DNA from: a bacterium
GTDB lineage: Bacteria; Eisenbacteria; RBG-16-71-46
DNA length: 64,000 nucleotides
Direction: 5' to 3'
Assembly (NCBI GenBank): GCA_046076045.1
Contig: JBJTRI010000119.1
Span: forward strand, 1,014-65,013
Shown here one piece after another: positions 3,166-64,000 of this stretch (the stretch's first letter is position 1; every line of letters starts with the position of its first letter). Under the pieces are notes generated by a model that saw only the letters and a program-made list of their open reading frames with translations, ran no database searches and was not told the origin of the DNA. The position numbers were made by a program, and so were the translations under genes.

Positions 3166-4764
3166 ATGGCCCCACCCGTTCACACGGGTGCCCGGCCGGC
3201 CGACCCTCCTCGCCCGAGCTCCCTCGCACAGGCCCCGCCGCGCACGCTCCTCGCCGCCACGCTCGTGGCGGCGTTGTTGCGCTTGCCCGGCCTCGGTCGG
3301 CCGAGCCTGTGGATCGACGAGCAGTTCACGCTGCTCGCGGCCGGACTGCCGGGCCCGTTCGACCCGCTCGCGTTGCTGGGCGACGTGCACGGGCCGCTCT
3401 ACACGCTCGCGGTGGCGTTCGCGGCCGCGCTCGGGGGTGACGCCGAGTGGGTGCTGCGTCTGCCGAGCGCGCTCGCGGGCGTGGCGACGGTGCCGGCGAT
3501 GGCGTGGCTCGCCGGGCGTTGGCTCGGCCCGGGCGCGGTCGCACCCGCCGCGTGGCTCGCGGCCGGCTCCCCGTTCCTCGTGTACTACTCGCAGGAGTGC
3601 CGCAACTACTCGTTCGTGCTGCTCGCCACGGTGCTTTCGCTCGGCGCCGCGCTGGGTCTGCGCGACCGCGCCGATGCCCGCCGCGTCGCGGGCTGGCTCG
3701 CCACCGTGGTGGCGGGCGTCCTCAGCAACTTCGCGTTCGTGTTCGTCGCGCCCCTGCAACTCCGCCTGCTGCTCGCGCCGGGCGAGGCGCTCGCGCGTCG
3801 CCGTCGTCTACTCGCGGGTGCGATCGTGGTCGTGGTACTCGCGGCTGCCCCGTGGGTGCCCGCGGTCGTCGGCACGTGGGACTGGGCGCGACTCGTGCCC
3901 GGGCGCGAGGCGCCCGCGACCGAGACGGGACTGCGCGGCGAGCACACCTTCCACCCGGCGGCGATCCCGTTCACGCTCCACACCTTCACGTCGGGGTACG
4001 GGGTGGGGCCGAGCCTGCGCGAGTTGCGGGCCGGACCGGCCGCGGCCGTCCGCGACCATGCCCTCGAACTGGCGCTCGCGGCCGCGCTGTTCGCGGTCCT
4101 GGGCGGGCTCGGGCTGCGGGCGGTGGCGAGGCGGGGGCGACTGGCCGATACCCTCCTCTGGCTCGTCGCACCCATGCTCGTCGTGAGCTATTTTGCGACG
4201 ACCAACTTCAAGGTGTTCCACCCCCGGTACCTCGCGGCCGCGATGCCGTGCGTGTTGCTGGTGGTGGCCGCCGCGTTCGCGGATGCTGCTCCGCGCACCC
4301 GGCGGGTGCTGGCTCTGGCGGTCGCGTTGCTGTGGTCGGTCTCGCTCGCGCGTGGCGCGTTCGACCCGGACTACGGCCGCGAGGACTACCGGACGGCGAT
4401 GGCGCACGTGCGCGCGGGGCTCGTCCCCGGCGAGCGCGTCCTCGCGGTCGGGGCGCCCGAGCCGGTGGAGTGGTACGGACGCGGTCTCGAGGTGCGGCGC
4501 TTCTGGCTCGGCTACGCGAGCGACGAGGCGCGGCTCTCGCGGGCGTGGCGGGACTCGGTGGGCGCACCGCCCCCGGGGCTGTGGGTGGTGGCGAGTCGCA
4601 CCGAGGACCTCGACCCCGAGGGGCGGTTCGCGCGACGACTCGACGGCTGGACGAATGAGCAGGACCGGAGCGCGTTCGCCGGGGTGCGGGTCTGGCACCT
4701 GCGCGAGCGTGTGACGGAGGACGATTCGGCCGGCGTGGTCGGTCCGGCGCAGGGTTCCCGGTAG
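3166..4764 (+). CDS. GT-C fold integral membrane glycosyltransferase (PMT/ArnT family, GT39/GT83-like)
   Basis: About 10 predicted TM helices in the first 400 aa, then a soluble C-terminal domain. The N-terminal loop (RLPGLGRPSLWIDEQF) is typical of dolichyl/undecaprenyl-phosphate-sugar dependent GT-C enzymes. ATG 3166 lies inside longer ORF 3034..4764. Confidence 0.7.
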   Translation: MAPPVHTGARPADPPRPSSLAQAPPRTLLAATLVAALLRLPGLGRPSLWIDEQFTLLAAGLPGPFDPLALLGDVHGPLYTLAVAFAAALGGDAEWVLRLPSALAGVATVPAMAWLAGRWLGPGAVAPAAWLAAGSPFLVYYSQECRNYSFVLLATVLSLGAALGLRDRADARRVAGWLATVVAGVLSNFAFVFVAPLQLRLLLAPGEALARRRRLLAGAIVVVVLAAAPWVPAVVGTWDWARLVPGREAPATETGLRGEHTFHPAAIPFTLHTFTSGYGVGPSLRELRAGPAAAVRDHALELALAAALFAVLGGLGLRAVARRGRLADTLLWLVAPMLVVSYFATTNFKVFHPRYLAAAMPCVLLVVAAAFADAAPRTRRVLALAVALLWSVSLARGAFDPDYGREDYRTAMAHVRAGLVPGERVLAVGAPEPVEWYGRGLEVRRFWLGYASDEARLSRAWRDSVGAPPPGLWVVASRTEDLDPEGRFARRLDGWTNEQDRSAFAGVRVWHLRERVTEDDSAGVVGPAQGSR

Positions 4765-4796
4765 CGGACGCGAGGCGCGTCCCGGAGGTCTCCCCG

Positions 4797-6113
4797 ATGC
4801 GGGTGGTGGTGGTCGGTCTCGGTTACGTGGGTTCCGTGTGCTCGGCGTGCCTCGCCGATCGTGGTCACGACGTCGTCGGTGTGGACACGAGCGAGTTCAA
4901 GGTGGAGTGCATCCGTCGCGGTGAGAGCCCGATCGTCGAGAAGGGGCTGCCCGAGCTCATCGGCAAGGCCGTGCGCGAGGGCCGACTGTCGGCCACCACG
5001 CGCATCGCCGAGGCCATGCCCGGCGCGGACATCGTGCTCGTGTGCGTGGGCACGCCGAGCGCCGAGGACGGTTCGCTCGACCTCGGCCATGTCAAGCGCG
5101 CCTGCGCCGAGGTCGGCTCCGCGCTCGCCGCCATGGGGCGGTTCGTGACCGTGGTCATGCGCAGCACCATGCTGCCGGGCTCGGTGCTCGACGAGCTGCG
5201 GCCGGTGATCGAGCAGTCCTCGGGGCTGCGTGCCGGTGACGGCTTCGGGGTCGCCTACAACCCCGAGTTCCTGCGCGAGGGCACCGCGGTCGAGGACTTC
5301 TTCGGCGCCGACTACACCATCCTGGGCGCGGGTTGCGCGCGCTCGGGCGAGGCGCTGCGCCAGCTCTACCACGGCGTCGGCGGCGAGCTCATCGTGACCG
5401 CCATCCCGACGGCCGAGATGCTCAAGTACGTGAACAACTCGTACCACGCGCTCAAGGTCGCGTTCGCGAACGAGTTCGGGCGGCTGTGCAAGCGCGAGGG
5501 CGTGGACAGCCACGAGGTCATGCGCCTCATGCGGCGCGACACCAAGCTCAACATCTCGGGTGCCTACCTGTCGCCGGGCTTCGCGTTCGGCGGTTCGTGC
5601 CTGCCCAAGGACCTGCGCGCGGTGAACTCGCGGGCGCGGCGCCACGACCTCGACCTGCCGGTGCTCGCCAGCATCATGCGCTCCAACGAGCTGCACGTGT
5701 CCGAGTCGGTCGCGCTCATCGAGCGCTTCAAGAAGCGCCGGCTCGGGTTCCTCGGCCTGTCGTTCAAGGCCGGCACCGACGACCTGCGCGAGAGCCCCAT
5801 CCTGCGCGTCATCGGAACGCTCGTCGGCAAGGGCTACGATGCCCGCCTGCACGACCCGAGCCTCGACGTCGAACGCCTGCTCGGCGCCAACCGCCGGTTC
5901 GTGGAGTCGGAGCTCGCGTACCTGCCCGAGCGCCTGCGTCCCGACCTCGCCGAGGTGCTCGCGCACGCCGAGGTCGTCGTGATCGGCAACCGCTCGGCCG
6001 AGTACCGTACGATCGGTCCGCGCCTGCGCGCGGGTCAGGTGGTGGTGGACCTCGTCGCGGCACTCGACCCGTCCACGGTCGTCGCCGGGGAGTACCATGG
6101 CCTCGCGTGGTAG
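4797..6113 (+). CDS. Nucleotide-sugar 6-dehydrogenase (UDP-glucose / UDP-ManNAc 6-dehydrogenase family)
   Basis: N-terminal VVGLGYVGSV NAD-binding motif and catalytic GFAFGGSCLPKD motif. 438 aa. Confidence 0.85.
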   Translation: MRVVVVGLGYVGSVCSACLADRGHDVVGVDTSEFKVECIRRGESPIVEKGLPELIGKAVREGRLSATTRIAEAMPGADIVLVCVGTPSAEDGSLDLGHVKRACAEVGSALAAMGRFVTVVMRSTMLPGSVLDELRPVIEQSSGLRAGDGFGVAYNPEFLREGTAVEDFFGADYTILGAGCARSGEALRQLYHGVGGELIVTAIPTAEMLKYVNNSYHALKVAFANEFGRLCKREGVDSHEVMRLMRRDTKLNISGAYLSPGFAFGGSCLPKDLRAVNSRARRHDLDLPVLASIMRSNELHVSESVALIERFKKRRLGFLGLSFKAGTDDLRESPILRVIGTLVGKGYDARLHDPSLDVERLLGANRRFVESELAYLPERLRPDLAEVLAHAEVVVIGNRSAEYRTIGPRLRAGQVVVDLVAALDPSTVVAGEYHGLAW

Positions 6114-7302
6114 GGTCCTGCACCTGTCCGAGAACCTCACGCTGCCGTTCGACCGGCGCGTGTGGATGGAGCTGAACGCACTCAAGGGCGCGGGGTGGGA
6201 CGTCGCCGCCATCTGCCCCATGGGCGAGGGCGGGAGCGAGCCCTACGAGGTGTTGAACGGCATCCACCTCTACCGCTACCCGGCGCCGCCCGAGACCAGC
6301 GGGTTCGTGAGCTACGTCTGGGAGTTCCTGTACTGCTGGCTGCGCACGTTCGCCCTCACGCTGCGCGTCTCGGCGCGTCACGGCTTCGACGTCATCCACA
6401 CCGCGAACCCGCCCGACACGTTCTGGGCCATCGCGCTGCCGTTCAAGCTCGCGGGCGTGCGGTTCGTCTTCGACCACCACGACCTGTGTCCCGAGTTGTA
6501 CCTGTCGCGCTTCGGCGAGCAGCGCGCCGGGTCGCTGCCGCACCGCTTGCTGCAGTGGCTCGAGCGCATGCAGTTCGCGTGCGCCGACCTCGTCATCTCG
6601 ACCAACGAGTCGTACCGTCAGGTCGCGATCGAGCGCGGACGCAAGCCCCCCGACCGTGTGCGCGTCGTGCGCAGCGGGCCCAGCCACCAGCGCTTCGCGA
6701 CCGTGCGCGAGCCCGCGCCCGAGCTCAAGCGCGGTCGGCCCTACCTCGTGGCCTACCTCGGCGTCATGGCGCCGCAGGACGGCGTGGACCACCTCGTGCG
6801 CGCCGCACGCATCCTGCTCGACCGCCGCTCCGACGTGGCGTTCACGTTCATCGGCGCGGGCGACTCGTTCGAGGACCTCAAGGCGCTGTCGCGCTCGCTC
6901 GGACTCGAGGACGCCTGCCAGTTCACCGGGCGCATCCCCGACGCCGAGGTCGAGCGCATCCTGGCGACCGCCGACGTGTGCGTGAGCCCCGACCCCAAGA
7001 ACCCGCTCAACGACGTGAGCACCATGAACAAGGTGCTCGAGTACATGGCGTGCGCCAAGCCCGTCGTGTGCTTCGACCTGCGCGAGCACCGCCACAGCGC
7101 GGGCGACGGCGCGGTCTACGCCGAGCCCAACCGTGACGACGACCTCGCCGCGTGCATCGAGCGCCTGATCGAGGACCCCGCGCTGCGCGAGCGACTCGGG
7201 GCCATGAACCGCCGTCGCTTCCTCGACCACCTCGCATGGGAGCACAACGCCGGCGCCTTGGTGTCGGCCTACGAGGAGCTATGCGCGCCGCGGCGCGGGT
7301 GA
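6097..7302 (+). CDS. Glycosyltransferase family 4
   Basis: GT-B fold with a C-terminal EX7E-like region; 401 aa. Overlaps the upstream gene by 17 nt. Confidence 0.8.
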   Translation: MASRGRVLHLSENLTLPFDRRVWMELNALKGAGWDVAAICPMGEGGSEPYEVLNGIHLYRYPAPPETSGFVSYVWEFLYCWLRTFALTLRVSARHGFDVIHTANPPDTFWAIALPFKLAGVRFVFDHHDLCPELYLSRFGEQRAGSLPHRLLQWLERMQFACADLVISTNESYRQVAIERGRKPPDRVRVVRSGPSHQRFATVREPAPELKRGRPYLVAYLGVMAPQDGVDHLVRAARILLDRRSDVAFTFIGAGDSFEDLKALSRSLGLEDACQFTGRIPDAEVERILATADVCVSPDPKNPLNDVSTMNKVLEYMACAKPVVCFDLREHRHSAGDGAVYAEPNRDDDLAACIERLIEDPALRERLGAMNRRRFLDHLAWEHNAGALVSAYEELCAPRRG

Positions 7303-8462
7303 AGGTGCTGCTCGTCGGCAGCGGTCGCGCCTTCGGCGGGACCGAGCGCGTGCTGTGGGAGCTCGCGACCGGGCTGAGCCCGTCGCGCTACGAGGTCCGC
7401 GTCTGGTTGTCGCCCGCCTCCGGCGTGGACGAACTGGCGCAGGCGCTGGAGGCGAGCGGCATCCCGGTGGACCGGGTCGCCGAGGTGGACCGGCGCAGCG
7501 ACCTGCGCGGGATGTGGGACACGTGGTCGCGCCTGCGCGCGCTGCGTCCCGACCTCGTGCATGTGCACCACGTCTGGCCCGCGGCCGATCGCTACCTCGC
7601 CCTGCTCGCGCGCGCCGCCGGCGTGCCGCACCTGGTCGTGACCGAGCACATCACCGGGAGCTCGCACTCGGCCGGTCAGCGCTGGCTCAAGCGCGACGAG
7701 TTGCGTTCGGCGTCCGCGGTGACCGCGGTGACGGGGGCGATCGTGGACACGCTGGTGCGCGACTACGGCATCGAGCGCTCGCTCGTGCGCGTGGTGCCGA
7801 ACGGGGCCGACGTGCCCGACGCCGCGCGCGAGGAACCGCTCGCGCGCCAGTGGCGCGAGCGCTACCTCGCCACCCCGATCAAGCCGTTGTGGGTGATCGC
7901 CGGTCGCATCGAGGAGCAGAAGGGGCACGACGTGCTGTTCCGCGCGCTCGCCCCGATCGTCGCGGCGGGTCTCGACTTCACGCTCGTGGTCGCGGGCGAC
8001 GGCTCGCGTCGGCGCTGGCTCGAGCAGCAGGCGATCTCGAACGGCCTCTCGCCGCGCGTGCAGTTCGTGGGGCAGGTGGACGACATCGGACCGTTGCTCG
8101 CCGCCGCCGACACCGTGCTGCTGCCGTCGCGCTGGGAGGGACTGCCGCTCGTGCTGCTCGAGGCCATGGCGCGCGCACGACCCATCGTGGCGTCCGCGGT
8201 CGGTGGCATCACCGACGTGATCGAGGACGGCGTCACCGGGACGCTCGTGCCGCCCGACGACGTCCCCGCGCTGAGCGCCGCGTTGGAGCTGGCGCACCGC
8301 AAGTCCGACCGCGCCATGCGCATCGGGCGCGCCGCCGCGCAGTGCGTGCGCGAGCGCTACACGTGGGGGGCGGTGGTCTCGGAGTTCGAGGCCGTGTACG
8401 ACGAGGCCGTCGGCGCAGCGAGCGTGACGCCCGAGCGTCCCCCCGCCGGCGGCGCACGATGA
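7281..8462 (+). CDS. Glycosyltransferase family 4/1
   Basis: The internal ATG at 7281 (MRAAARVKVLLVGSG...) gives a typical GT4 N-terminus. It overlaps the previous stop, and the TGA at 8460 overlaps the next start. Confidence 0.75.
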   Translation: MRAAARVKVLLVGSGRAFGGTERVLWELATGLSPSRYEVRVWLSPASGVDELAQALEASGIPVDRVAEVDRRSDLRGMWDTWSRLRALRPDLVHVHHVWPAADRYLALLARAAGVPHLVVTEHITGSSHSAGQRWLKRDELRSASAVTAVTGAIVDTLVRDYGIERSLVRVVPNGADVPDAAREEPLARQWRERYLATPIKPLWVIAGRIEEQKGHDVLFRALAPIVAAGLDFTLVVAGDGSRRRWLEQQAISNGLSPRVQFVGQVDDIGPLLAAADTVLLPSRWEGLPLVLLEAMARARPIVASAVGGITDVIEDGVTGTLVPPDDVPALSAALELAHRKSDRAMRIGRAAAQCVRERYTWGAVVSEFEAVYDEAVGAASVTPERPPAGGAR

Positions 8463-9436
8463 GACTGGGCGTGGTGATCCCCTGCCACCGGCAGGAGCGC
8501 TTCCTGCCGCGCACGCTCGCCGCACTCGAGCACGCGCTCGCCGGTCGCGAGTGGGCGGGCGTGCTGGTGCTCGCCTCGCCGGGGGCCGACGCCGACCTGC
8601 TGCGCGTACCCGCGGGCTGGCGCGTGCTGCGCGCGACCGGGCCCGCCGACGCCGCTCCGCTCACGCCGGGTGCGGCGCGCAACGCCGGGTTCGCGGCGTG
8701 CGGGGGCGACTGGGTGCTGTTCGTGGACGCCGACGTCGAGGTGGAGCGCGCCTGGCTCGAGCGCGCCTGCGACGAGGCGCGACGCGACCCCGAGCTCGCG
8801 GGTTCGTGGGGGCGCATCGAGGAGTGGTTCGTGGACGGGGCGGGGGAGCGGCCGGGCGTGCGCGACCTGTACCGCGTCGGCGACGCCGACGCCGAGGCGC
8901 GCTACACCGCCACGCTGTCGTTCTACCGCCGCGCCGCGCTCGAGGGCGTGGGCGGCTACGACCCGTCGCTCCACAGCGAGGAGGACTTCGAGCTCGGCCT
9001 CCGCCTGCGGCTCGCCGGGCTCCGCATGCGAACGCTCGCACCGCTCGCGGCGCGCCACTGGAGCGGCCCGCGCCCGAGCTTCGCCGAGGTCGGGCGGCGC
9101 TGGCGCACCGGGCTGTGCCTGGGGTCGGGCGAGGCGTTGCGCGCCTACCTCGGGCGTGCGGGCTTCGGTGAACTCGTCGCGCGCAACGCGCACTACGGCG
9201 CCATGCTCGTGCTCGCCCTCGCGGCCCCGGTCGCGGTCGGGCTCGCGGGCGCGCGCGGCCTCGCGGGGTGGGCGCTCGCCCCGCTCGCGCTGCTCGCGCT
9301 CATGACCGTGCGCAAGCGCAGCGCCCGTCTCGCGCTGCACTCGATCGTGACGTGGTCGGTGATGGCCGCGGGTCTGGTCGCGGGGTTCGTGCGCGGCGGG
9401 GCGGCGGCACCCGCGCCCGTCGAGGAGGTCGCGTGA
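8459..9436 (+). CDS. Glycosyltransferase family 2 with C-terminal TM helices
   Basis: Starts MRLGVVIPCHRQERFL (GT2 N-terminal motif) and has DAD and ED-like motifs. Its ATGA overlap joins it to the upstream gene. Confidence 0.75.
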   Translation: MRLGVVIPCHRQERFLPRTLAALEHALAGREWAGVLVLASPGADADLLRVPAGWRVLRATGPADAAPLTPGAARNAGFAACGGDWVLFVDADVEVERAWLERACDEARRDPELAGSWGRIEEWFVDGAGERPGVRDLYRVGDADAEARYTATLSFYRRAALEGVGGYDPSLHSEEDFELGLRLRLAGLRMRTLAPLAARHWSGPRPSFAEVGRRWRTGLCLGSGEALRAYLGRAGFGELVARNAHYGAMLVLALAAPVAVGLAGARGLAGWALAPLALLALMTVRKRSARLALHSIVTWSVMAAGLVAGFVRGGAAAPAPVEEVA

Positions 9437-39460: not shown

Positions 39461-42340
<2,880 letters not shown>

Positions 42341-42717
42341 CGAGGGTTCTCCGGGGGGCGGTCGCGAGCAGGTCCGTGTGGCCACTCGCGAACGGGGCCG
42401 TTCCACGGCGCCGGGTGAGCGACCGCGGGGGACGGGTGTGGACCGGACGCCGGGGGCGCCGGGGTGGACCGGACCGCGACCCGAGCGCGGTCGGGCACGC
42501 ACGGCCCACCGCTCCCCGGGACGCGGGGATACCCCGAGGTCTTCGGCACGCGAGGGGCAGCGCTTGAGCACCGAGGGGTCCTCGTGCATGGTGGGGGCGT
42601 AGGAGGGCCCCCAGACCCGGTCGGACCGGGTCTGGCCCGCCCCTCCGCGCGGTCCCTCCACCCGGGATGGGCCGCCCCGGACCGTCCCGGTCCGTCCCAG
42701 CCCCCCTCGGAGTCCCG

Positions 42718-44013
42718 ATGCCCTTCGCCTCACTGGGTCTGCCCGCCGCCCTGCTGCGCGGCGTCCGCGCCGCCGGTTACCAGACCCCCACCCCGGTCCA
42801 GGCCCGGGCCATCCCGCTCGTGCTCGAGGGGGGAGACGTGGTCGCCGCCGCCCAGACCGGCAGCGGCAAGACCGCCGCCTTCGTGCTGCCCATCCTCGCC
42901 CAGTTGCTCGACCGCCCGCGCGCGCTGCGGGCGCTGGTGCTCGCGCCCACCCGCGAGCTCGCCGCCCAGATCGAGACCGCGGCCCGTGACCTCGCGCGCT
43001 TCACCAAGCTCAAGGTGGGAGTGGTGCACGGTGGCGTGAACATCGGCCCGCACGAGCGCATGCTGCGCGGCGAGGGCGTGGACATGCTGGTCGCCACGCC
43101 GGGCCGCCTGCTCGACCTGTATGGTCGGCAGAGCGTGGTGTTCGACGACATCGAGGTGCTCGTGCTCGACGAGGCCGACCGCATGGTGGACATGGGGTTC
43201 GCGCCCGACCTGAAGCGCATCCTGTCGCTGCTGCCCGACGACCGGCAGACGCTGCTGTTCTCGGCCACCATGCCGCCGGCGCTCAACGACGTGGCCAAGC
43301 AGGCGCTCTACGATCCGGTGCGCGTGGACCTGGCCCCGCAGACGCGGCCCGCGGCCGGCATCACGCAGGCCGTCTACCCCGTGTCGCGACCGCTCAAGAC
43401 CGACCTGCTCGACACCCTGTTGCGGCGCACCCCGACCGACGGCGTCATCGTGTTCGCACGCACCAAGCGCGGTGCCGAGCGACTCGCGCGACAGCTCGAG
43501 AAGCGCGGGCACGCGGTGGCCGCGCTGCACGGGGACCGCTCGCAGTCGCAGCGCGAGCGCGCGCTGCGCGACCTCAAGCGCGGGCGCGTCGAGGTGCTGG
43601 TCGCCACCGACATCGCCTCGCGCGGCATCGACGTCGAGGACCTCACGCACGTCATCAACTACGACGTGCCGGTGACGCCCGAGGACTACGTGCACCGCAT
43701 CGGTCGTACCGGGCGCGCGGATGCCACCGGTGACGCGTTCACGCTCATGTCGCCCGAGGAGGACCGCGACATGAAGGCGATCGAGCGCTTCATCGGTCGC
43801 AGCATCGCGCGCGTCACCCTGCCCGACTTCGACTACCGCAAGGCCCCGACGCCGCAGGGTGGCGAGGACCGCGGTGGGCGCGGGGGGAGCGGTGCGCGCG
43901 AGCACGGCTCGGTGTCGCGTCCGGCCGCCCCGGCAACGCCCGCGGCGCCCTCGGGTCCGGTGCACGGTCGGCGCCCGAAGCGCGAGGCTCCCGGCGGCCG
44001 TCGTCGTCGCTGA
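42718..44013 (+). CDS. DEAD-box ATP-dependent RNA helicase (RhlE-like)
   Basis: Q-motif ([13 protein letters not shown]), [18 protein letters not shown] and HRIGRTGR motifs, plus an Arg/Gly-rich C-terminal tail. Confidence 0.85.
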
Positions 44014-56696: not shown

Positions 56697-57214
56697 AGGG
56701 GGGCAGCCTAGACCAGAGCCCGCCCTGCCGCACTCCCGGGTCCGGCCTGCGTCCACCATGCGTTCCGCAACGGGTCGTGCGGTTCGACGGGCACCCCGGA
56801 CCCGGGAGGGAGGGGGCCGGGCGGCGCGGGTTGGCAATGCCATGAAACCGCTTGGGAGCGCGCCTCGGCGAGGGCTATCCTTTCGAGCGTGTGGTGTTCC
56901 GACCGGAGCCCGCACGGATTCCACATATACATACACCCGACCGGCCGTCACCCCCCTCCGCCACGGCCCGGTTCGAAGTGAACCATGCGTGCGCCTCACC
57001 GCGCCGCCGGGGTCACCCTGCCATGCACCTGCGCCGATCCCACGACCTCGTGTCGGTCCGCGCCATCGCCCGGAGGGGCGCGATGGCGTGTCTCGTGTGT
57101 GCCCTCCGCGAGACCCGCCCGCTCCGCGCCGCGCGATCCCTTTCGCAACTGCGATCCGTTGCCGCCCCCTGCATCACTCCCGCCCACTCGCGTCACCACT
57201 CCCCTGGAGCATCC

Positions 57215-58024
57215 ATGCGTAACCTCACCCTGACCCTCGCGATCGCAGCGTTGTCGTGGCTCGCCGTTCCGGCGCAGGCCGCCGTCACCGCCGCACTGGT
57301 CCCCGCCAACCAGACGGTGACGCCGGGCAGCGACTTCGACGTCTTCTTCGACGTCACGGCGGCCGGCTCGAGCTTCAACGGTATCGACCTGGTCGTGTCC
57401 TGGGATCCGGCTCGGCTCACGCTGCTTCCGACCTCGCCCACGACGGCGCAGCAGGGCTGCCTCATGACCGGCACCTGCAGCGCATCGTGCGGCAGCACGT
57501 TCCATCGCTTCTCCACCGCGGCCGACAGCGCGGTGGCGACGAGCGTGATGCTCTGCAACGGCGTCTCGCTCACCGGCCCCGGGCGGCTCTACAAGCTCCG
57601 GTTCCGCGCCGCCAACGTGGTCGCGGCCACCGCCATCACGGTCCGTCGCGCCAGCTTCTACAACGCCGGTCTCACCGTGAGCCCGGTCAGCTCCGCGGGC
57701 TGCAACGTCGGGATCGGTGTCACGACCGGCGTCGAGGACGGGGTGCGCCCCGGCCTGCGCCTCCTGCGCGTCGAGCCCAACCCTGCGCATGGCCGCGTGC
57801 AGTTCCGCTCCGAGGACGACCACGCCGGGCTCGTCGCGGCCGAGGTGCTCGACCTCCAGGGCCGCGTGCGCCATCGCATGGCACCGGTCTGGGTGGGAGC
57901 GCGTGGTGGGTTCACGTGGGACGGCCGCGACCTCGACGGCGGCCGCCTGCCCGCCGGGCTCTACCTCGTGCGCATCCGCCGCGGCGGCAGCGATCAGACC
58001 CATCGGGTGACGCTGCTCCCGTGA
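57215..58024 (+). CDS. Secreted cohesin-like domain protein with C-terminal FlgD-Ig/T9SS-type sorting domain
   Basis: Signal peptide. A roughly 150-aa beta-sandwich region fits the cohesin pattern (TVTPGSDFDVFFDVTAAGSSFNGIDLVVSWDPARLTLL...RLYKLRFRAANVVAATAITV). The C-terminal tail reads LRVEPNPAHGRVQFR...VLDLQGRV...WDGRDLDGGRLPAGLYLVRIRRGG...RVTLLP. Its stop overlaps the next start (GTGA). Confidence 0.6.
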   Translation: MRNLTLTLAIAALSWLAVPAQAAVTAALVPANQTVTPGSDFDVFFDVTAAGSSFNGIDLVVSWDPARLTLLPTSPTTAQQGCLMTGTCSASCGSTFHRFSTAADSAVATSVMLCNGVSLTGPGRLYKLRFRAANVVAATAITVRRASFYNAGLTVSPVSSAGCNVGIGVTTGVEDGVRPGLRLLRVEPNPAHGRVQFRSEDDHAGLVAAEVLDLQGRVRHRMAPVWVGARGGFTWDGRDLDGGRLPAGLYLVRIRRGGSDQTHRVTLLP

Positions 58025-58077
58025 CGAACACCCTCGTGCATCGGCTCCGCGACGCGCAGCGCGCGATCCGCGAGTGG

Positions 58078-61000
58078 GTGGCCCCGCGGCCGCTCACTCG
58101 GGCTCGTGCGTGCGCGGCGGTGCTCGCGTGCACGATGGTCGCCAGCGCTGCGCACGCGCAGACGCTGCGTCCCGACTTCCAGATCACGAACGGGCAGGTG
58201 AACGCGCAGGTGCTGCGCGGCGACACGCTCTACGTGGGTGGCAGCTTCTCCTTCGTCGGTCCCGTCACGGGCGCGGGTGTGCCGGTGGACACGGCGACCG
58301 CACAGCCCCTCGTGGGCTTCCCTGCGGTGAACGGTTCGGTGTTCGCGGCCGTCTCGGACGGTGCGGGCGGGTGGTACCTCGGCGGCCAGTTCACCGCGGT
58401 CGGCAGCAGCCCTCGCAGCAACCTCGCCTACGTGCTCGCCGACGGCAGCGTGTCGTCGTGGAACCCGGGTGCGAACGGCGCGGTGCGTGCCCTGGCGCTG
58501 CGCTCGGGCGTGCTCCACTGCGGTGGCGACTTCCTCTCGCTCGGCGGCGTGCTGCGCAATCGCATCGGTGCGGTGAGCGCCTCGACGGGCGCGGTGCAGG
58601 CTTGGAACCCGAACGCCAACGCCACCGTGCGTGCGCTCGTCGAGGGCGCGACCGGGGTCTACGTGGGCGGCCAATTCACCTCGATCGGTGGTCAGGTGCG
58701 CAATCGAGTGGCGCTGCTCTCGTTCGCCACCGGTGCCGCGGACGCGACCTGGAACCCGAACGCGAACAGCACGGTGAATGCGCTCCACCTCCATGCGGCC
58801 TCGGGTACGGTCTACGCGGGTGGTCAGTTCACCGCGATCGGTGGCCAGCTCCGCAATCGTGCCGCGGCGCTCGATGCCGTCACCGGTGTCGCCCGTGGCT
58901 GGAATCCCAACGTGGCCGCGACCGTCAACGCGATCGCGGCCGACGCCGCCACCGTGTACCTGGGTGGTTCGTTCACCTCGGTGGGCGGGCAGGCGCGCAG
59001 CCGCATCGTCGCGATCGACGCTTCGACCGGCCTGCCGACCGCATGGAACCCGAACGCCGGCAACACGGTCCAGACGATTCTCCTGAGCGGCGCGACCCTC
59101 TACGTGGGCGGCGACTTCCTCGCGGTGGGCGGCGAGGCGCGCAGCCGCCTCGCCGCACTCTCCACCGCGACCGGGCTTGCGACCGCGTGGAACCCGAGCG
59201 CGTTCGGCACCGTGTCCGTGCTGCAGTTCGACGGATCGCGTCTGTTCGTGGGCGGTTCGTTCAACGGGCTCGGCGGTGTGGCGCGCAACAACCTCGCCGC
59301 CTTCGACGTCACGACCGGCCAGGTCACCGCGTGGAACCCCGACGCCAACAACCAGGTCCAGGCGCTCGCGCTCTCGGGCGACACGCTCGTCGTGGGCGGT
59401 AACTTCACCTCCGTCGCGGGCCAGGTGCGTAACGGTGCTGCGGCCGTGCATGCGATCACCGGTGCGCTGCACGCGTTCGACCCCAACGTGGGCGGTCAGG
59501 TCAGCGCCATCGCGGTGGCGCTCCCGCGCGTCTACCTGGGAGGGCTGTTCGGGACGGTCGGGGGGCAGGTGCGCGTCAACCTCGCCGCGGTGAACTCGGC
59601 CACCGGTGCGGTCGAATCGTGGACCGCCGACACGGACGACCAGGTGTTCGCGATCGAGCCCACCGCGCAAGGCGTGCTCGTGGGTGGCAACTTCACCTTG
59701 TTGTCGGGCGTCGTGCGCGGGTTCATCGGCGCGCTCGACCCCGTCTCGGGGGCCGCGACCGCGTGGATCCCCGACGCGAACGGCACCGTGCGCACGATCG
59801 CCGCCGGATGCGACCGCATCTACGCCGGCGGCTTCTTCACGAGCATCGGTGGGCAGTCCCGCAACCGCGCAGCGGCGCTCAACCGCAGCAACGGCCAGGC
59901 GTTGTCGTGGGATCCCAACCTGAACGGTCCGGTATTCGCGCTCATGCCGCGTCCGGGCACGGTCTACCTGGGTGGCGTCTTCAGCACGGTGGGTTCGACC
60001 GCGCGCAATCGCATCGCTGCCGTGGACCCGGTGAGTGCCGCGGTCACGGCATGGAACCCCAACTCGAACGGCACGGTGCGCAGTGTCGTGGTGGGGAATA
60101 GCGAGGCTTACGCGGGCGGACTGTTCTCCACCATGTCGGGCGCACCGTCGGGTAACCTCGCGGCCTTCCCCTCGGATGCGAGCCTGCCCTGTGCCACCAT
60201 CGGCCTACCTTCGGGCCCGATCTCGACCGCGGTGGTCGGGGGTGCGGTCGCACACTCGTTCCCGGCCAGCGGTGGCACGTCACCCTATTGCTATCGCGTC
60301 TCGTCGGGGACATTGCCGACCGGGCTCTCGCTCGACCCCTCGACCGGTTCGGTCACGGGCACGCCGCTCACCTCCGGCACGTTCTCGTTCTCGATCACCG
60401 CGACCGACGTGCGCGGCTGCACGGGCACCGTGGCGCTGACGTGGGCGGTGGCGCCCACGCCGGCTTCGAACGGTGTGGCGCCCGTCACCACCGGGTTGTG
60501 CCTGAACCCCGAGGTGTCGGTGGTGCAGGTGCCGTTCTCGCTCGTGCGCGGGGACACGCTCGCGCTGCGCTCGGTGAGCGTGACGTTCCAGGTCGACACC
60601 ACGCGCCTTCGGCTGCCGACGGCGGGCCCCGCATCGGCGCACGTCAGCGCCGGGGCGTGGGGAGCGGCGTTCCCGAACCGCACGCTGCAGGTCACCGAAC
60701 TCGGCGGCGGCCGCTACACGGTCGAGGTCGCACTCACCGGTGCGCCGTGCGGGGTCACGACGGGCGGCACGCTGTTCTCGGTCGCGCTCGCAGCTCAGGG
60801 CCCGAGCGGGGTCGCCGCGGTGAGCCTGGTCGCGATCGGAGCCCAGGACTGCGCTGGCGTGCCGGTCGGGCTCAACATGGGGGCGGCGGGTGGCGTGAAC
60901 GTTTCCACGTCGCCGATCGCGGTCTCGCCGGACTCGCTGCCGGTCGCGATCGCTGGCGGGGCCTACGCCGTCTCGTTCTCCGCGACCGGTGCCAGTGGGC

Positions 61001-64000
61001 CGCTCACCTGGACGGTCGCATCCGGTGCGCTTCCCGCAGGCCTGACGCTGTCCTCGGCCGGCGTGCTCGCGGGCACGCCGACGGCCTCGGGCACGTTCCC
61101 GCTGGTGATTCGCGCCACCGAGGCCGCGGGTTGCCGGGGCTCGCTCGCCTGCACGCTCACCGTGGCCTGCCCGACCATCGCGCTCACGCCCGCGTTGCTG
61201 CCGGACGGCTCCGTGGGCGCGGCCTACTCCGCCACGCTCGGTGCGGTCGGGGGCGTCGCCCCGTTCACGTATGCGGTGACCGCGGGCTCGCTGCCCGCGG
61301 GACTCACGCTGTCGGAGGCAGGTGCGATCTCGGGCACCCCGAGCGCGGTCGGCACGTCCATCCTGACCATCACCGCGACCGATGCGGCCGGTTGCACCGC
61401 GACGATCGAGCACCTCGTGGACGTGTACGCCACGGTGCCGCTCTCGACGGTGCGGGCCGTGTCGCTGGGGCAGGCCCTCACCAGCGCGCGCTCGCGCGTG
61501 ACGGTGCCCTTCACCTACACGCGCGGCGAGAGCGACAGCGTGCGCGGCGTGACGGTGTCGTTCCAGACCGACCCCACGCGGGTCGCCTTGAACGACACGA
61601 TGACCGCGGCGATCCGACTCGGCGACTGGACCGCGGGGTACCCGAACACGAACCTGCAGGTGGTCCAGGACGGCCCTGACGCGTGGACGGTGGACGTCAT
61701 CCTGCTCGGCGGGTCGTGCGGCATCACGACCGGGGGCACGTTGTTCACCGTGGACCTGCGTTCGGTGGGGCCGGACGGCCCCGCGCCGATCGTAGTGACG
61801 CGCGTGAAGGCCCGTGACTGCGGCAACCTGCCGGTGCCGGTGCGCGCCGGTGCGATCGACACGCTGCGTGTGCAGAACACGGACCTCGCGCTCACGCCGG
61901 CGACGCTGCCCAACGGCGAGGTCGGCGCGGCCTACTCGGTCGCACTGGGTGCGTCGAACGCGCGCACGCCGCTGACGTTCGCGCTCGTCTCGGGTGCGTT
62001 GCCGCCGGGGCTCGCGCTGTCCTCGTCGGGTGTGCTCACCGGGCTGCCCACGACGAGTGGGGCCTACTCGTTCACGGTCTCGGCAGCGGATGCCGACAGT
62101 GTGCCGGGCCAGCGCGTCTTCGTGCTCACGGTCGCGTGCCCGGTGCTGGTGCTCGACCCGGCGCTGCTCGCCGACGCTCGTGTGGGCGCGTCGTACTCGG
62201 ACTCGATCGCGGTGCTCAACGGCATCGGCCCGTTCGCGTTCACGCTCGTCGAGGGTGTGTTGCCCAGCGGCCTCGCGTTGTCCCCGACCGGCGCGATCTC
62301 GGGCGTGCCGACCGCTCCGGGCTTCCACATCTTCACGCTCGGTGCCACGGGCGGGTCGGGTTGCACGGGGCAGGAGACCTACACGATCAACGTGTTCGCC
62401 GACTCGGCCGTCTCGCGCATCGTGGCCCGCACGCAGGGGCTCTGTCTCACGCCCTCGAACCCGTGCGTCACCGTGCCGTTCGTCTACGAGCGAGCGGACA
62501 CCATGCCCGCACGACTCGTGCACGTCGAGTTCGAGCTCGACGCCCGCTTCGCGCTGTGCACGCCGGCCGCGCCGTACTCGAGCATCCGCGAGGGGACATG
62601 GGCGGGGGGCGCGAGCACCGTGTTCCAGGTGATGTCGCTCGGCGCCAACCGCTACGGGGTGGACCTGGCGATCCTCGGTGAGCCGTGCGGCCCCGACTCG
62701 ACCGTCGTGTTGTTCACGGTGGACGTCGCCGCGGTCGGCGGGGACGGCGTGGGCGACCTGGTCGTGACCGATGCGCGTGTGCGCGACTGCGACAATCAGC
62801 CGATCCCGGTCGAGTCCGGTTCGACCGCGGCGCTGGTGGTGACCAGCACGCTGCCGCCCGCGATCGCGGATCTATCGGTGACGCGCGTGACCTCGGGGAA
62901 TGGCACCTCGGGCCGCATCGGGTTGTTGGTGTCGTGGACGCCGCCGCTCGAGGGCGTGGTGTCCCTCTACCGTGCGCCATTCGGAAGCTATCCCGAGTAC
63001 GACGATGCCGGTGGCGTGACGCCCGACTCCGCACTCGCCCCCGGCGCGCCGTGGACGCTGGTCTCGGCCGCGGCGAGCCCGGGCTTGGTGGACCTGCCGC
63101 CGGTGCGTGGCGTGTGGCACTACCTCGCATTCGTGACGGACTCGTGCCAGATGCGCTCCGCGCCCTCGAACCTCACGCCCGGTCGGCCGAACTACCAACT
63201 CGGTGACGTGAGCGACGGCGCCGTGCGCGGCCAGGGCGACAACCTCATCCGGGTCGAGGACGTGTCATTGCTCGGCGCGCACTACGGGCGCACGGGGGCT
63301 GCGATCGCGGCCGCGAACGTGGCGTACCTCGACGTGGGCCCGACGGTGGACGGGACGCCGGACAGTCGTCCGGTCACGGACGACGTGATCGGGTTCGACG
63401 ACCTGATGCTGTTCTCGCTCGGCTTCGAGTCGGTGTCGTCGCCCGCGATGCGCGCGCGTCCCGCCGCGAGCCCCGAGCGTGCGGAGGCCACCGAGTCGTT
63501 CGAGGTGTTCGCGCCTTCGCGGGTCGCCGCCGGCGACGAGGTGGTGGCCGAACTGCGACTCGACGCCCGCGGCGGCCTGCAGGGCTTCGCCGTGCAGCTG
63601 GCGTGGGACGAGGGCGTGCTGGAGCCGCTCGGGTCCGAGTCCGGCGGGCTGGCCGAGTCCCAGGGCGGCGTGGCCTACCTGCCGCGCCCCGGCGCCGCCG
63701 ATGCGGCACTGCTGGGCGTGAGCGACGTCGGCTTCACCGGTACGGGCGTGGTGGCACGCTACCGCTTCCGTGCGCGCCGAGACGGCGACCCCGCCGTCCG
63801 CATCGCGACGATCGAGGCGCGCGACGCCGCGAACCACTCCGTCCCCGCATCGCGACTGGGCGCGACGCGAGTGCCCGCACCTCCGACGACCACCGTGCTC
63901 CTGTCCCCGGCCCCCAACCCCGCCCGCGGTGCCGCGAACCTGGCGTTCGGACTGGCGCGCCGCGGTCCGGTGGAGTTGACGGTGCTCTCGGTGGACGGCC
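58078..64000 (+). CDS. Giant secreted multidomain surface protein, 3'-truncated by window end (>1,970 aa): signal peptide, about 14 beta-propeller-type repeats, 5 He_PIG Ig domains interleaved with 3 Cys-containing beta-sandwich modules, a dockerin-like segment, a cohesin-like module and the start of a FlgD-Ig/T9SS-type tail
   Basis: Hand translation of the frame starting at GTG 58021 shows no stop codon through 64000 and uniformly high GC3. The ORF is missing from the supplied track because it has no in-window stop. I chose GTG 58078 as the start because it gives a canonical signal peptide (..APRPLTRARACAAVLACTMVASAAHA|QT). Minus-strand ORFs 57994..59670 and 60280..62523 are its antisense shadows. 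Confidence 0.7.
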   Translation, partial: MAPRPLTRARACAAVLACTMVASAAHAQTLRPDFQITNGQVNAQVLRGDTLYVGGSFSFVGPVTGAGVPVDTATAQPLVGFPAVNGSVFAAVSDGAGGWYLGGQFTAVGSSPRSNLAYVLADGSVSSWNPGANGAVRALALRSGVLHCGGDFLSLGGVLRNRIGAVSASTGAVQAWNPNANATVRALVEGATGVYVGGQFTSIGGQVRNRVALLSFATGAADATWNPNANSTVNALHLHAASGTVYAGGQFTAIGGQLRNRAAALDAVTGVARGWNPNVAATVNAIAADAATVYLGGSFTSVGGQARSRIVAIDASTGLPTAWNPNAGNTVQTILLSGATLYVGGDFLAVGGEARSRLAALSTATGLATAWNPSAFGTVSVLQFDGSRLFVGGSFNGLGGVARNNLAAFDVTTGQVTAWNPDANNQVQALALSGDTLVVGGNFTSVAGQVRNGAAAVHAITGALHAFDPNVGGQVSAIAVALPRVYLGGLFGTVGGQVRVNLAAVNSATGAVESWTADTDDQVFAIEPTAQGVLVGGNFTLLSGVVRGFIGALDPVSGAATAWIPDANGTVRTIAAGCDRIYAGGFFTSIGGQSRNRAAALNRSNGQALSWDPNLNGPVFALMPRPGTVYLGGVFSTVGSTARNRIAAVDPVSAAVTAWNPNSNGTVRSVVVGNSEAYAGGLFSTMSGAPSGNLAAFPSDASLPCATIGLPSGPISTAVVGGAVAHSFPASGGTSPYCYRVSSGTLPTGLSLDPSTGSVTGTPLTSGTFSFSITATDVRGCTGTVALTWAVAPTPASNGVAPVTTGLCLNPEVSVVQVPFSLVRGDTLALRSVSVTFQVDTTRLRLPTAGPASAHVSAGAWGAAFPNRTLQVTELGGGRYTVEVALTGAPCGVTTGGTLFSVALAAQGPSGVAAVSLVAIGAQDCAGVPVGLNMGAAGGVNVSTSPIAVSPDSLPVAIAGGAYAVSFSATGASGPLTWTVASGALPAGLTLSSAGVLAGTPTASGTFPLVIRATEAAGCRGSLACTLTVACPTIALTPALLPDGSVGAAYSATLGAVGGVAPFTYAVTAGSLPAGLTLSEAGAISGTPSAVGTSILTITATDAAGCTATIEHLVDVYATVPLSTVRAVSLGQALTSARSRVTVPFTYTRGESDSVRGVTVSFQTDPTRVALNDTMTAAIRLGDWTAGYPNTNLQVVQDGPDAWTVDVILLGGSCGITTGGTLFTVDLRSVGPDGPAPIVVTRVKARDCGNLPVPVRAGAIDTLRVQNTDLALTPATLPNGEVGAAYSVALGASNARTPLTFALVSGALPPGLALSSSGVLTGLPTTSGAYSFTVSAADADSVPGQRVFVLTVACPVLVLDPALLADARVGASYSDSIAVLNGIGPFAFTLVEGVLPSGLALSPTGAISGVPTAPGFHIFTLGATGGSGCTGQETYTINVFADSAVSRIVARTQGLCLTPSNPCVTVPFVYERADTMPARLVHVEFELDARFALCTPAAPYSSIREGTWAGGASTVFQVMSLGANRYGVDLAILGEPCGPDSTVVLFTVDVAAVGGDGVGDLVVTDARVRDCDNQPIPVESGSTAALVVTSTLPPAIADLSVTRVTSGNGTSGRIGLLVSWTPPLEGVVSLYRAPFGSYPEYDDAGGVTPDSALAPGAPWTLVSAAASPGLVDLPPVRGVWHYLAFVTDSCQMRSAPSNLTPGRPNYQLGDVSDGAVRGQGDNLIRVEDVSLLGAHYGRTGAAIAAANVAYLDVGPTVDGTPDSRPVTDDVIGFDDLMLFSLGFESVSSPAMRARPAASPERAEATESFEVFAPSRVAAGDEVVAELRLDARGGLQGFAVQLAWDEGVLEPLGSESGGLAESQGGVAYLPRPGAADAALLGVSDVGFTGTGVVARYRFRARRDGDPAVRIATIEARDAANHSVPASRLGATRVPAPPTTTVLLSPAPNPARGAANLAFGLARRGPVELTVLSVDG
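58180..60180 (+). repeat. About 14 tandem 47-48-aa coding repeats (beta-propeller/delta-60-like blades) within the giant ORF
   Basis: Period about 144 nt. Each unit is roughly WNPNANGTV.AL...G.TVYVGGQFTSIGGQ.RNR.AALDA.TG. DNA-level repeats are also visible (tggaacccgaacgcsaac recurs). Confidence 0.7.

Follow-up and report, generated by a model that had tools for sequence, protein, structure and literature searches.

Three cysteine-bearing modules of a giant open reading frame (ORF) in DNA of Candidatus Eisenbacteria very probably belong to the cohesin superfamily, as divergent cohesin-fold domains; this assignment of fold and superfamily is based on a structural model and on profile comparisons. 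The analyzed stretch of DNA, hereafter the window, comprises 64,000 nucleotides of contig JBJTRI010000119.1 (GenBank assembly GCA_046076045.1, positions 1,014 to 65,013 of the forward strand), and the giant ORF runs past its 3' edge. The encoded protein is secreted and composed of many domains. Of its four cohesin-fold modules, three belong to a disulfide-bearing subfamily, and immunoglobulin (Ig) domains of the He_PIG family separate these three. The best explanation of the whole, to which we assign a probability of about 0.45, is that the three modules are disulfide-braced divergent cohesins that serve a scaffoldin-like surface protein of Candidatus Eisenbacteria as receptors for docking.

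The modules, designated M1, M2, and M3, are about 150 amino acids (aa) long, and their boundaries (Table 1) were taken from the envelopes of the family hidden Markov model (HMM). These envelopes lie within about 50 nucleotides of the places where a preliminary description of the sequence had put three homologous modules, and the pattern reported there (VPF..R, W, QV, LG..CG..TGGTLF, and DC...P.PV) is visible in the module alignment. Pairwise BLASTP showed 39% identity between M1 and M2 (E 3e-36), 36% between M1 and M3 (3e-26), and 41% between M2 and M3 (2e-28). Within the window, such modules were found only in the giant ORF.

No match for any of M1–M3 was obtained in Pfam at E ≤ 10 or in NCBIfam at E ≤ 1. 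A word-indexed search for homologs of M2 alone came back empty, and searches of the PDB sequences with profiles of three and 62 sequences returned chance-level matches only (designed Ig proteins, Cel7A, and fimbrial proteins). An exhaustive HMMER search with the three-module profile against 1.84 billion cluster representatives (50% identity clusters) recovered 435 representatives at E ≤ 1e-3; 325 of them reached E ≤ 1e-10, and 34 reached E ≤ 1e-30. Judged on these sequences, the module family is genuine and unannotated; the source names of the ten representatives that were looked up read solely “hypothetical protein.” The consensus of 146 full-length family domains was C......C.t.P....R......Rg.SVtf.Ls..L.LC...G.yl....fqV.dnGgGsYTVD.aiLG.pCG.t..GtLFtv........dGtGtitvt.v..RDC.N.p.p...G. 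The number of Cys-modules in relatives varied from one to three, and the single module present in most of them occupies the position of M3.

The fold assignment was provided by an AlphaFold2 model of M2, calculated from the 62-sequence family alignment. The model reached a predicted local distance difference test score (pLDDT) of 95.1 and a predicted template modeling score (pTM) of 0.88, and consisted almost entirely of beta-strands with one 4-residue helix. A Foldseek comparison with the PDB gave 64 matches at E ≤ 1e-3, and all 50 listed matches were cohesins, with a probability of 1.00 and template modeling (TM) scores of 0.51–0.73 normalized to the query. The top match was the non-cellulosomal cohesin 2xdh of Archaeoglobus fulgidus (E 4e-7); the cohesins of Clostridium perfringens (2jh2, 2vo8, and 2w1n) and C. 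thermocellum (1ohz, 1aoh, and 1anu) were also included. A carbohydrate-binding module, and likewise a domain of the Big or another Ig family, were rejected as candidates, as none such occurred among the 50 listed matches. A fold that is truly new can practically be excluded, and the earlier view of the modules as beta-sandwich domains of an extracellular protein agrees with both the model and the protein context.

Profile comparison placed the modules in the same superfamily. The giant protein carries a fourth, cysteine-free cohesin-fold module near its C-terminus, and the family of such C-terminal domains is, by its own profile matches, a bona fide cohesin family: of its 41 members, 23 match Pfam Cohesin (PF00963; best E 2.5e-11), the full-length relatives P0024, P0040, and P0001 score above the gathering cutoff (34.8, 33.7, and 25.5 bits, respectively), and the family profile (A4) matches solved cohesins by sequence at E 5e-6 to 0.015 (3l8q at 5e-6, 5g5d, 2vn5, 1g1k, and 4uyp). 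The window copy of the C-terminal cohesin itself is below Pfam detection. Alignment of A4 with the Cys-module profile (A3) gave 96.3% in hhalign with an E-value of 2e-9, an HMM built from C-terminal cohesins only scored M2 at 38.9 bits, and M2 matched the C-terminal copy of its own protein in BLAST (E 5e-5). In the complete chromosome OZ245046.1, a separate ORF (4592–5707 of the extracted locus L002) directly downstream of a relative with a single module also encodes a cohesin-like domain (A4 HMM, 20.9 bits).

The preliminary description had left the module unmatched to any known family and had suggested a new domain. The first part stood as far as curated HMM libraries are concerned, from which the module is absent; the second part gave way, since profile comparison, structure prediction, and Foldseek returned a divergent cohesin, the outcome that the description itself had named as contrary to its idea. 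A domain family unrelated to cohesin, with a fold likeness produced by convergence, would account for the absence of Pfam, NCBIfam, and PDB sequence matches for the modules and the family profile. However, the profile homology to bona fide cohesins of the same proteins (E 2e-9), the motifs common to both, and the exclusively cohesin fold matches make such an origin very improbable. Because no direct Pfam HMM match was obtained, M1–M3 were filed as a divergent subfamily and not as ordinary members of PF00963.

The covariation of cysteines was counted over the 146 family domains. At positions 15 and 47 of the profile both cysteines were present in 130 domains, neither in 15, and only one in a single domain; at positions 91 and 125 the counts were 143, 2, and 1, respectively. 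Thus, C15/C47 and C91/C125 behave as predicted disulfide pairs, which are supported indirectly because the cysteines of each pair are gained and lost together. The disulfide proposed earlier for the cysteines of the CG...TGGTLF and DC motifs is C91/C125, and the same covariation lends it indirect support. In the Cys-free C-terminal cohesins, the positions of C91 and C125 are both replaced together. C8 was found in 112 domains and has no obligate partner within the domain. The CG/DC pair is the only one common to M1, M2, and M3; M1 has C8 in addition, M2 has this pair only, and M3 carries C8 and both pairs. Thus, C15/C47 is lost entirely in M1 and M2, and C8 is additionally lost in M2. In the ortholog P0001, modules 1 and 3 have all three of these cysteines, and module 2 has F in place of C8.

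A threefold super-repeat of two He_PIG domains followed by one module had been described for the giant ORF. The threefold repeat proved real, but the first unit contains one He_PIG domain. Across 318 aa, super-repeat 2 shares 42% identity with super-repeat 3 (BLASTP, E 2e-81), and super-repeat 1 can be aligned only to residues 78–323 of super-repeat 2 (its last 246 aa); therefore, the He_PIG domains are laid out as 1+2+2. Pfam detected He_PIG (PF05345) in five stretches (E 6e-58, 193.6 bits, gathering cutoff 24). The proposed start of the super-repeat at 60290 falls within the first He_PIG domain (60178–60477). The conserved cysteine pair (GC..G) proposed for these domains was not found: they contain 3, 3, 1, 1, and 1 cysteines in total, and a single “GC” cysteine occurs in four of the five, being absent from the fourth.

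The triplication is evidently old, because the DNA copies are 64–79% identical and the ortholog P0001 (full-length, 2,044 aa, 51% identity) shares the 1+2+2 layout. Each window module finds its best match in its positional counterpart in P0001. A recent DNA duplication and an assembly artefact were rejected on the basis of the same copy identities and of the triplication common to the 51%-identical ortholog.

The giant ORF is at least 1,993 aa long inside the window, within an open frame extending from 57223 to 63999 on the plus strand. Its translation likely starts at GTG 58021 or at an in-frame start close by. The predicted signal peptide ends in AVLACTMVASAAHA followed by QT, with cleavage between AAHA and QT near position 58158, and P0001 can be aligned from its residue 23 (“QT.RPDF”), the equivalent N-terminal point. 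Together with the He_PIG domains and the FlgD_ig C-terminal domain, the signal peptide points to an extracellular setting. The third-position GC content of the frame (0.86) is that expected for a real gene in this genome, the GC content of the window being 70–77%. Antisense ORFs (e.g., 60283–62871, minus strand) and off-frame ORFs of up to 863 codons were rejected as genes, having no domain matches; such long frames over the giant gene are attributed to DNA of 73% GC, with all domain matches lying on the plus frame. A 392-codon open stretch (56846–58021, plus strand) with gene-like codon bias immediately precedes the giant ORF and overlaps its 5' open frame; it had no Pfam match at E ≤ 1e-5.

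The signal peptide is followed by a beta-propeller, three units of one or two He_PIG domains plus a Cys-cohesin, a region of about 100 aa, a dockerin-like module, a cohesin of canonical type, and an end resembling FlgD_ig and the sorting domains of the type IX secretion system (T9SS). The propeller array contains at least 12 very regular repeats, recurring every 48 aa (W-N-P-N ... GG-F-T-x-x-GG-Q-x-R-N), and its match to DUF5122/Rax2 is weak.

Table 1. Features of the giant ORF in the window. Positions are counted from the first nucleotide of the window.
Feature	Position	Strand	Evidence and remarks
Giant ORF	58021..63999	+	at least 1,993 aa inside the window; expected length about 2,050 aa; 3' end beyond the window
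N-terminal beta-propeller region	58180..60177	+	Pfam DUF5122 35 bits, Rax2 40 bits; motif spacing 48–50 aa
He_PIG Ig domain 1, sole Ig domain of super-repeat 1	60178..60477	+	Pfam He_PIG; alignment of super-repeats 1 and 2
Module M1	60478..60933	+	family HMM 141 bits; alignments; Cys at module positions 8, 91, 125
He_PIG Ig domains 2 and 3	60934..61452	+	Pfam He_PIG; pairwise BLAST of Ig units, E 1e-15 to 1e-28
Module M2	61453..61902	+	family HMM 155 bits; Cys 89, 123 (module numbering) only; module used for modeling
He_PIG Ig domains 4 and 5	61903..62421	+	Pfam He_PIG; BLAST
Module M3	62422..62874	+	family HMM 174 bits; full set C8, C15/C47, C91/C125 (profile numbering)
Conserved region of about 100 aa between M3 and the dockerin-like module	62878..63183	+	family-wide conservation; motifs ..YRA.FG.YPEYDD.., ..W.Y.AF..D.C...S
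Dockerin-like module, two related segments	63184..63465	+	GDVSDG...GDNLIRVEDVSLLGAHYG and DVGPTVDG...TDDVIGFDDLMLFSLGF; family HMM 115 bits
C-terminal cohesin, fourth cohesin-fold module, without cysteines	63484..63873	+	A4 family HMM 149 bits
FlgD_ig-type (T9SS-sorting-like) C-terminal domain, beginning only	63889..63999	+	cut at the window end

The part of the protein downstream of the modules is shared by relatives as a cassette. In 80 of the best 150 relatives, the gap between the last Cys-module and the C-terminal cohesin had a median of 205 aa (interquartile range 203–209), and the dockerin-like module stood at fixed spacing directly before the Cys-free cohesin, ahead of FlgD_ig. The region between the last Cys-module and the C-terminal cohesin is strongly conserved. 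The conserved region of about 100 aa had no Pfam match and is placed like the X module in X-dockerin dyads. In the family, the two segments of the dockerin-like module read “DN.V...DiS.LGa.YG” and “D..i.FEDL..FaiNYG,” and these halves align with each other (hhalign E 9e-4, 17 columns). The C-terminal cohesin of relatives ends about 80–100 aa short of the protein C-terminus, where Pfam detects FlgD_ig; this domain was found at the extreme C-terminus of P0001, P0003, and other relatives, with additional weak Pfam matches of P0028 to Por_Secre_tail and CHU_C. Beyond the end of the window, the same sequence is carried on by an 87%-identical fragment.

Cohesins are known for the Ca2+-dependent docking of dockerin modules, and scaffoldins consist of several cohesins plus one dockerin. 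The giant protein may have an architecture of the scaffoldin type, with its four cohesin-fold modules, one dockerin-like module (assigned from weak matches), and the FlgD_ig C-terminal domain. Under the docking explanation, the Cys-cohesins would be rigid receptors, kept apart from one another by the He_PIG Ig spacers, and would bind, in trans, the dockerin-like module carried by proteins of this family. The giant protein might thereby serve at the cell surface as a small scaffold for collecting sister proteins or building a network, with the propeller as its displayed head and the FlgD_ig domain providing export and anchoring. The predicted disulfides (C91–C125 always, C15–C47 usually) would stabilize the sandwich outside the cell. 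Dockerin binding by the Cys-cohesins, and with it the scaffold role, is proposed by analogy and tentatively, at somewhat less than even odds.

Several observations weigh against this proposal. For the modules themselves, no match to Pfam Cohesin reached the gathering score in M1–M3 or in 62 relatives, two of which touched Cohesin at E 0.034. For the segment 63184–63465, the evidence of a dockerin-like nature is weak. Its best AlphaFold2 model shows three helices (pLDDT 80.6), and the other four models reached 52–57. Matches 1–11 of this model in Foldseek were all dockerin-containing chains (X-dockerin dyads, a type II dockerin, and scaffoldin fragments bearing dockerin), yet with E-values of 0.07–1.7. 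The PDB sequence-profile search gave only three matches, all dockerins, at a weak E of 0.36–0.47. None of 43 members of the dockerin-like family matched Pfam Dockerin_1 (PF00404) at E ≤ 10, nor did the full-length scans detect it; both putative Ca loops carry insertions in comparison with the canonical 12-residue loop. A homolog search with the dockerin-like profile found only short unannotated fragments without Pfam domains and gave no transitive link to Dockerin_1. There is also no operon or neighborhood signal for a docking system within the window, where the neighbors of the giant ORF are of the housekeeping type (M28 and M24 peptidases, an S1-domain protein, PEPCK, a cation-efflux protein, and a hybrid histidine kinase). 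In addition, the dockerin-like module and the C-terminal cohesin, adjacent in every relative, may clasp in cis and leave the Cys-cohesins partnerless, and cohesin-fold domains can also serve as plain spacers.

These last two points lead to the main rival explanation, in which Cys-cohesins lacking a specific ligand and He_PIG domains would form a rigid, disulfide-braced, and protease-resistant stalk holding the propeller off the cell surface, and a cis clasp of the dockerin-like module and the C-terminal cohesin would belong to the anchor. Modules and Ig spacers alternate like beads on a string, the module copy number of one to three among relatives is usual for stalk repeats, and the dockerin-like module always adjoins the C-terminal cohesin; moreover, the loss of the optional C15/C47 pair in two of the three window modules suggests relaxed constraint. 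However, the polar residues R24, R31, D81, R121, and N125 are nearly invariant in relatives only 26–46% (in one case 63%) identical to M2; this conservation goes beyond the needs of core packing and argues mildly against a pure spacer. The position of the last module is likewise fixed, about 205 aa ahead of the C-terminal cohesin (interquartile range 203–209), and the copies are conserved position by position between orthologs of 51% identity. On balance, we consider a purely structural role rather unlikely.

Binding of a non-protein ligand was also considered, in which case a cohesin-like jelly roll would fix the protein on a mineral, on the surface of a prey or host, or on a polysaccharide. 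In favor of this possibility, some carbohydrate-binding modules have a jelly roll similar to that of cohesins. The N-terminal heads of relatives differ, comprising propellers, beta-helix/NosD domains, and lectin-like (C-type-lectin-like) domains, and such heads are typical of glycan-directed surface proteins. However, none of the 50 listed structural matches of M2 was a carbohydrate-binding module, all being cohesins; sequence homology also points to the cohesin family, and an obvious conserved aromatic platform was not seen in the family consensus. A carbohydrate-binding role is thus less likely, and attachment to non-protein ligands as a whole appears quite improbable.

The docking explanation can be extended from the giant protein to its relatives. 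Eisenbacteria and relatives may possess a non-cellulosomal, disulfide-reinforced cohesin–dockerin system of surface assembly, which as a whole we regard as unlikely. In such a system, hundreds of secreted proteins with varied heads would share one C-terminal cassette, composed of the Cys-cohesin (where present), the X-like region, an atypical dockerin, a cohesin, and FlgD_ig. Proteins with several Cys-cohesins would act as scaffoldins gathering the rest into a cell-surface network, and the Cys-cohesin would represent a new cohesin type with a dockerin specificity of its own. In the library searched, no literature linking Eisenbacteria with cohesin was found; a preprint on giant genes of Omnitrophota that names cohesin and dockerin was judged not comparable.

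The closest genomic matches of the window were metagenome-assembled genomes of Candidatus Eisenbacteria (Eiseniibacteriota). A genome scan with the single protein gave three loci; an 87%-identical fragment is located in JBEGJG010000314.1, and the single-module relative in OZ245046.1 is 39% identical. At the ortholog locus (L004; JGI 3300047409, contig Ga0467011_0000032), the gene at 5335–9102 encodes a 1,255-aa protein with He_PIG, dockerin-like, cohesin, and FlgD_ig domains and without a Cys-cohesin. This gene lies one gene further upstream of the ortholog, with a 278-aa FlgD_ig gene between them, and its product is a possible partner of the ligand type. No equivalent neighbor is present in the window. 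The hybrid sensor histidine kinase of the window (39464–43000, minus strand) is large, with CHASE8, HisKA, HATPase_c, two receiver domains, and Hpt, and is apparently unrelated to the giant ORF.

With the modules placed within the cohesin superfamily, the lead of a new domain falls, and what is new is a subfamily rather than a kind of domain. The analysis defines a sizeable unannotated cohesin subfamily of an uncultured phylum, with conserved predicted disulfides and in the fixed company of a dockerin-like module, a second cohesin, and FlgD_ig. A dedicated Pfam or NCBIfam model would allow annotation of several hundred proteins. Should the dockerin-like segment prove to be bound by the modules, a cellulosome-style logic of assembly would serve non-cellulolytic surface proteins in Eisenbacteria, and the disulfide-braced pair could serve in protein engineering as an orthogonal docking pair.

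Among known systems, the type II X-dockerin dyads (4u3s, 4wi0, 2b59, and 5m0y) ranked highest for the dockerin-like segment in both fold and sequence, at non-significant values (E ≥ 0.07). As in these dyads, a conserved region (here of about 100 aa) directly precedes the dockerin-like module; unlike in them, both putative Ca loops have insertions and Dockerin_1 is not matched. The cohesin-like modules of GH84C and GH33 of C. perfringens (2jh2, 2vo8, and 2w1n) gave the highest TM scores with M2, 0.68–0.73 when normalized to the query, and 2jh2 and 2vo8 reached 0.77–0.80 when normalized to the target. In 2w1n, the cohesin is followed by a fibronectin-type-III module, which resembles the succession of M3 and the 100-aa region. 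However, the C. perfringens cohesins belong to catalytic toxin-complex enzymes of a Firmicute and lack conserved disulfides and the He_PIG super-repeat.

The cohesins of cellulosomal scaffoldins (PF00963; CipA and OlpC of C. thermocellum, ScaA and ScaB of Acetivibrio cellulolyticus; 1anu, 1aoh, 1ohz, 4dh2, and 3l8q) share the predicted beta-sandwich of the modules at TM scores of about 0.6–0.7, and homology to them can be traced via the C-terminal cohesin of the giant protein. As in scaffoldins, several cohesin copies are arranged along one secreted protein together with one module of dockerin type, here dockerin-like. In contrast to cellulosomal cohesins, M1–M3 are only 10–19% identical to them, escape the Pfam model, and have conserved predicted disulfides; the spacers are He_PIG Ig domains instead of Pro/Thr linkers, the head is a beta-propeller instead of CBM3, and the host is a high-GC representative of Eisenbacteria instead of a cellulolytic Firmicute. 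Dockerin-bearing glycoside hydrolases or other enzymes were not seen in this analysis.

The best structural match of M2, the A. fulgidus cohesin 2xdh (TM 0.66/0.71, 19% identity), comes from another phylum and another architecture; here, the modules come in threes, with conserved cysteines, and are linked to a C-terminal domain of the FlgD_ig type. Non-cellulosomal cohesins are described as a class from a largely non-catalytic context (PMC13487519), and the context of the modules in the giant protein is likewise non-cellulosomal and largely non-catalytic.

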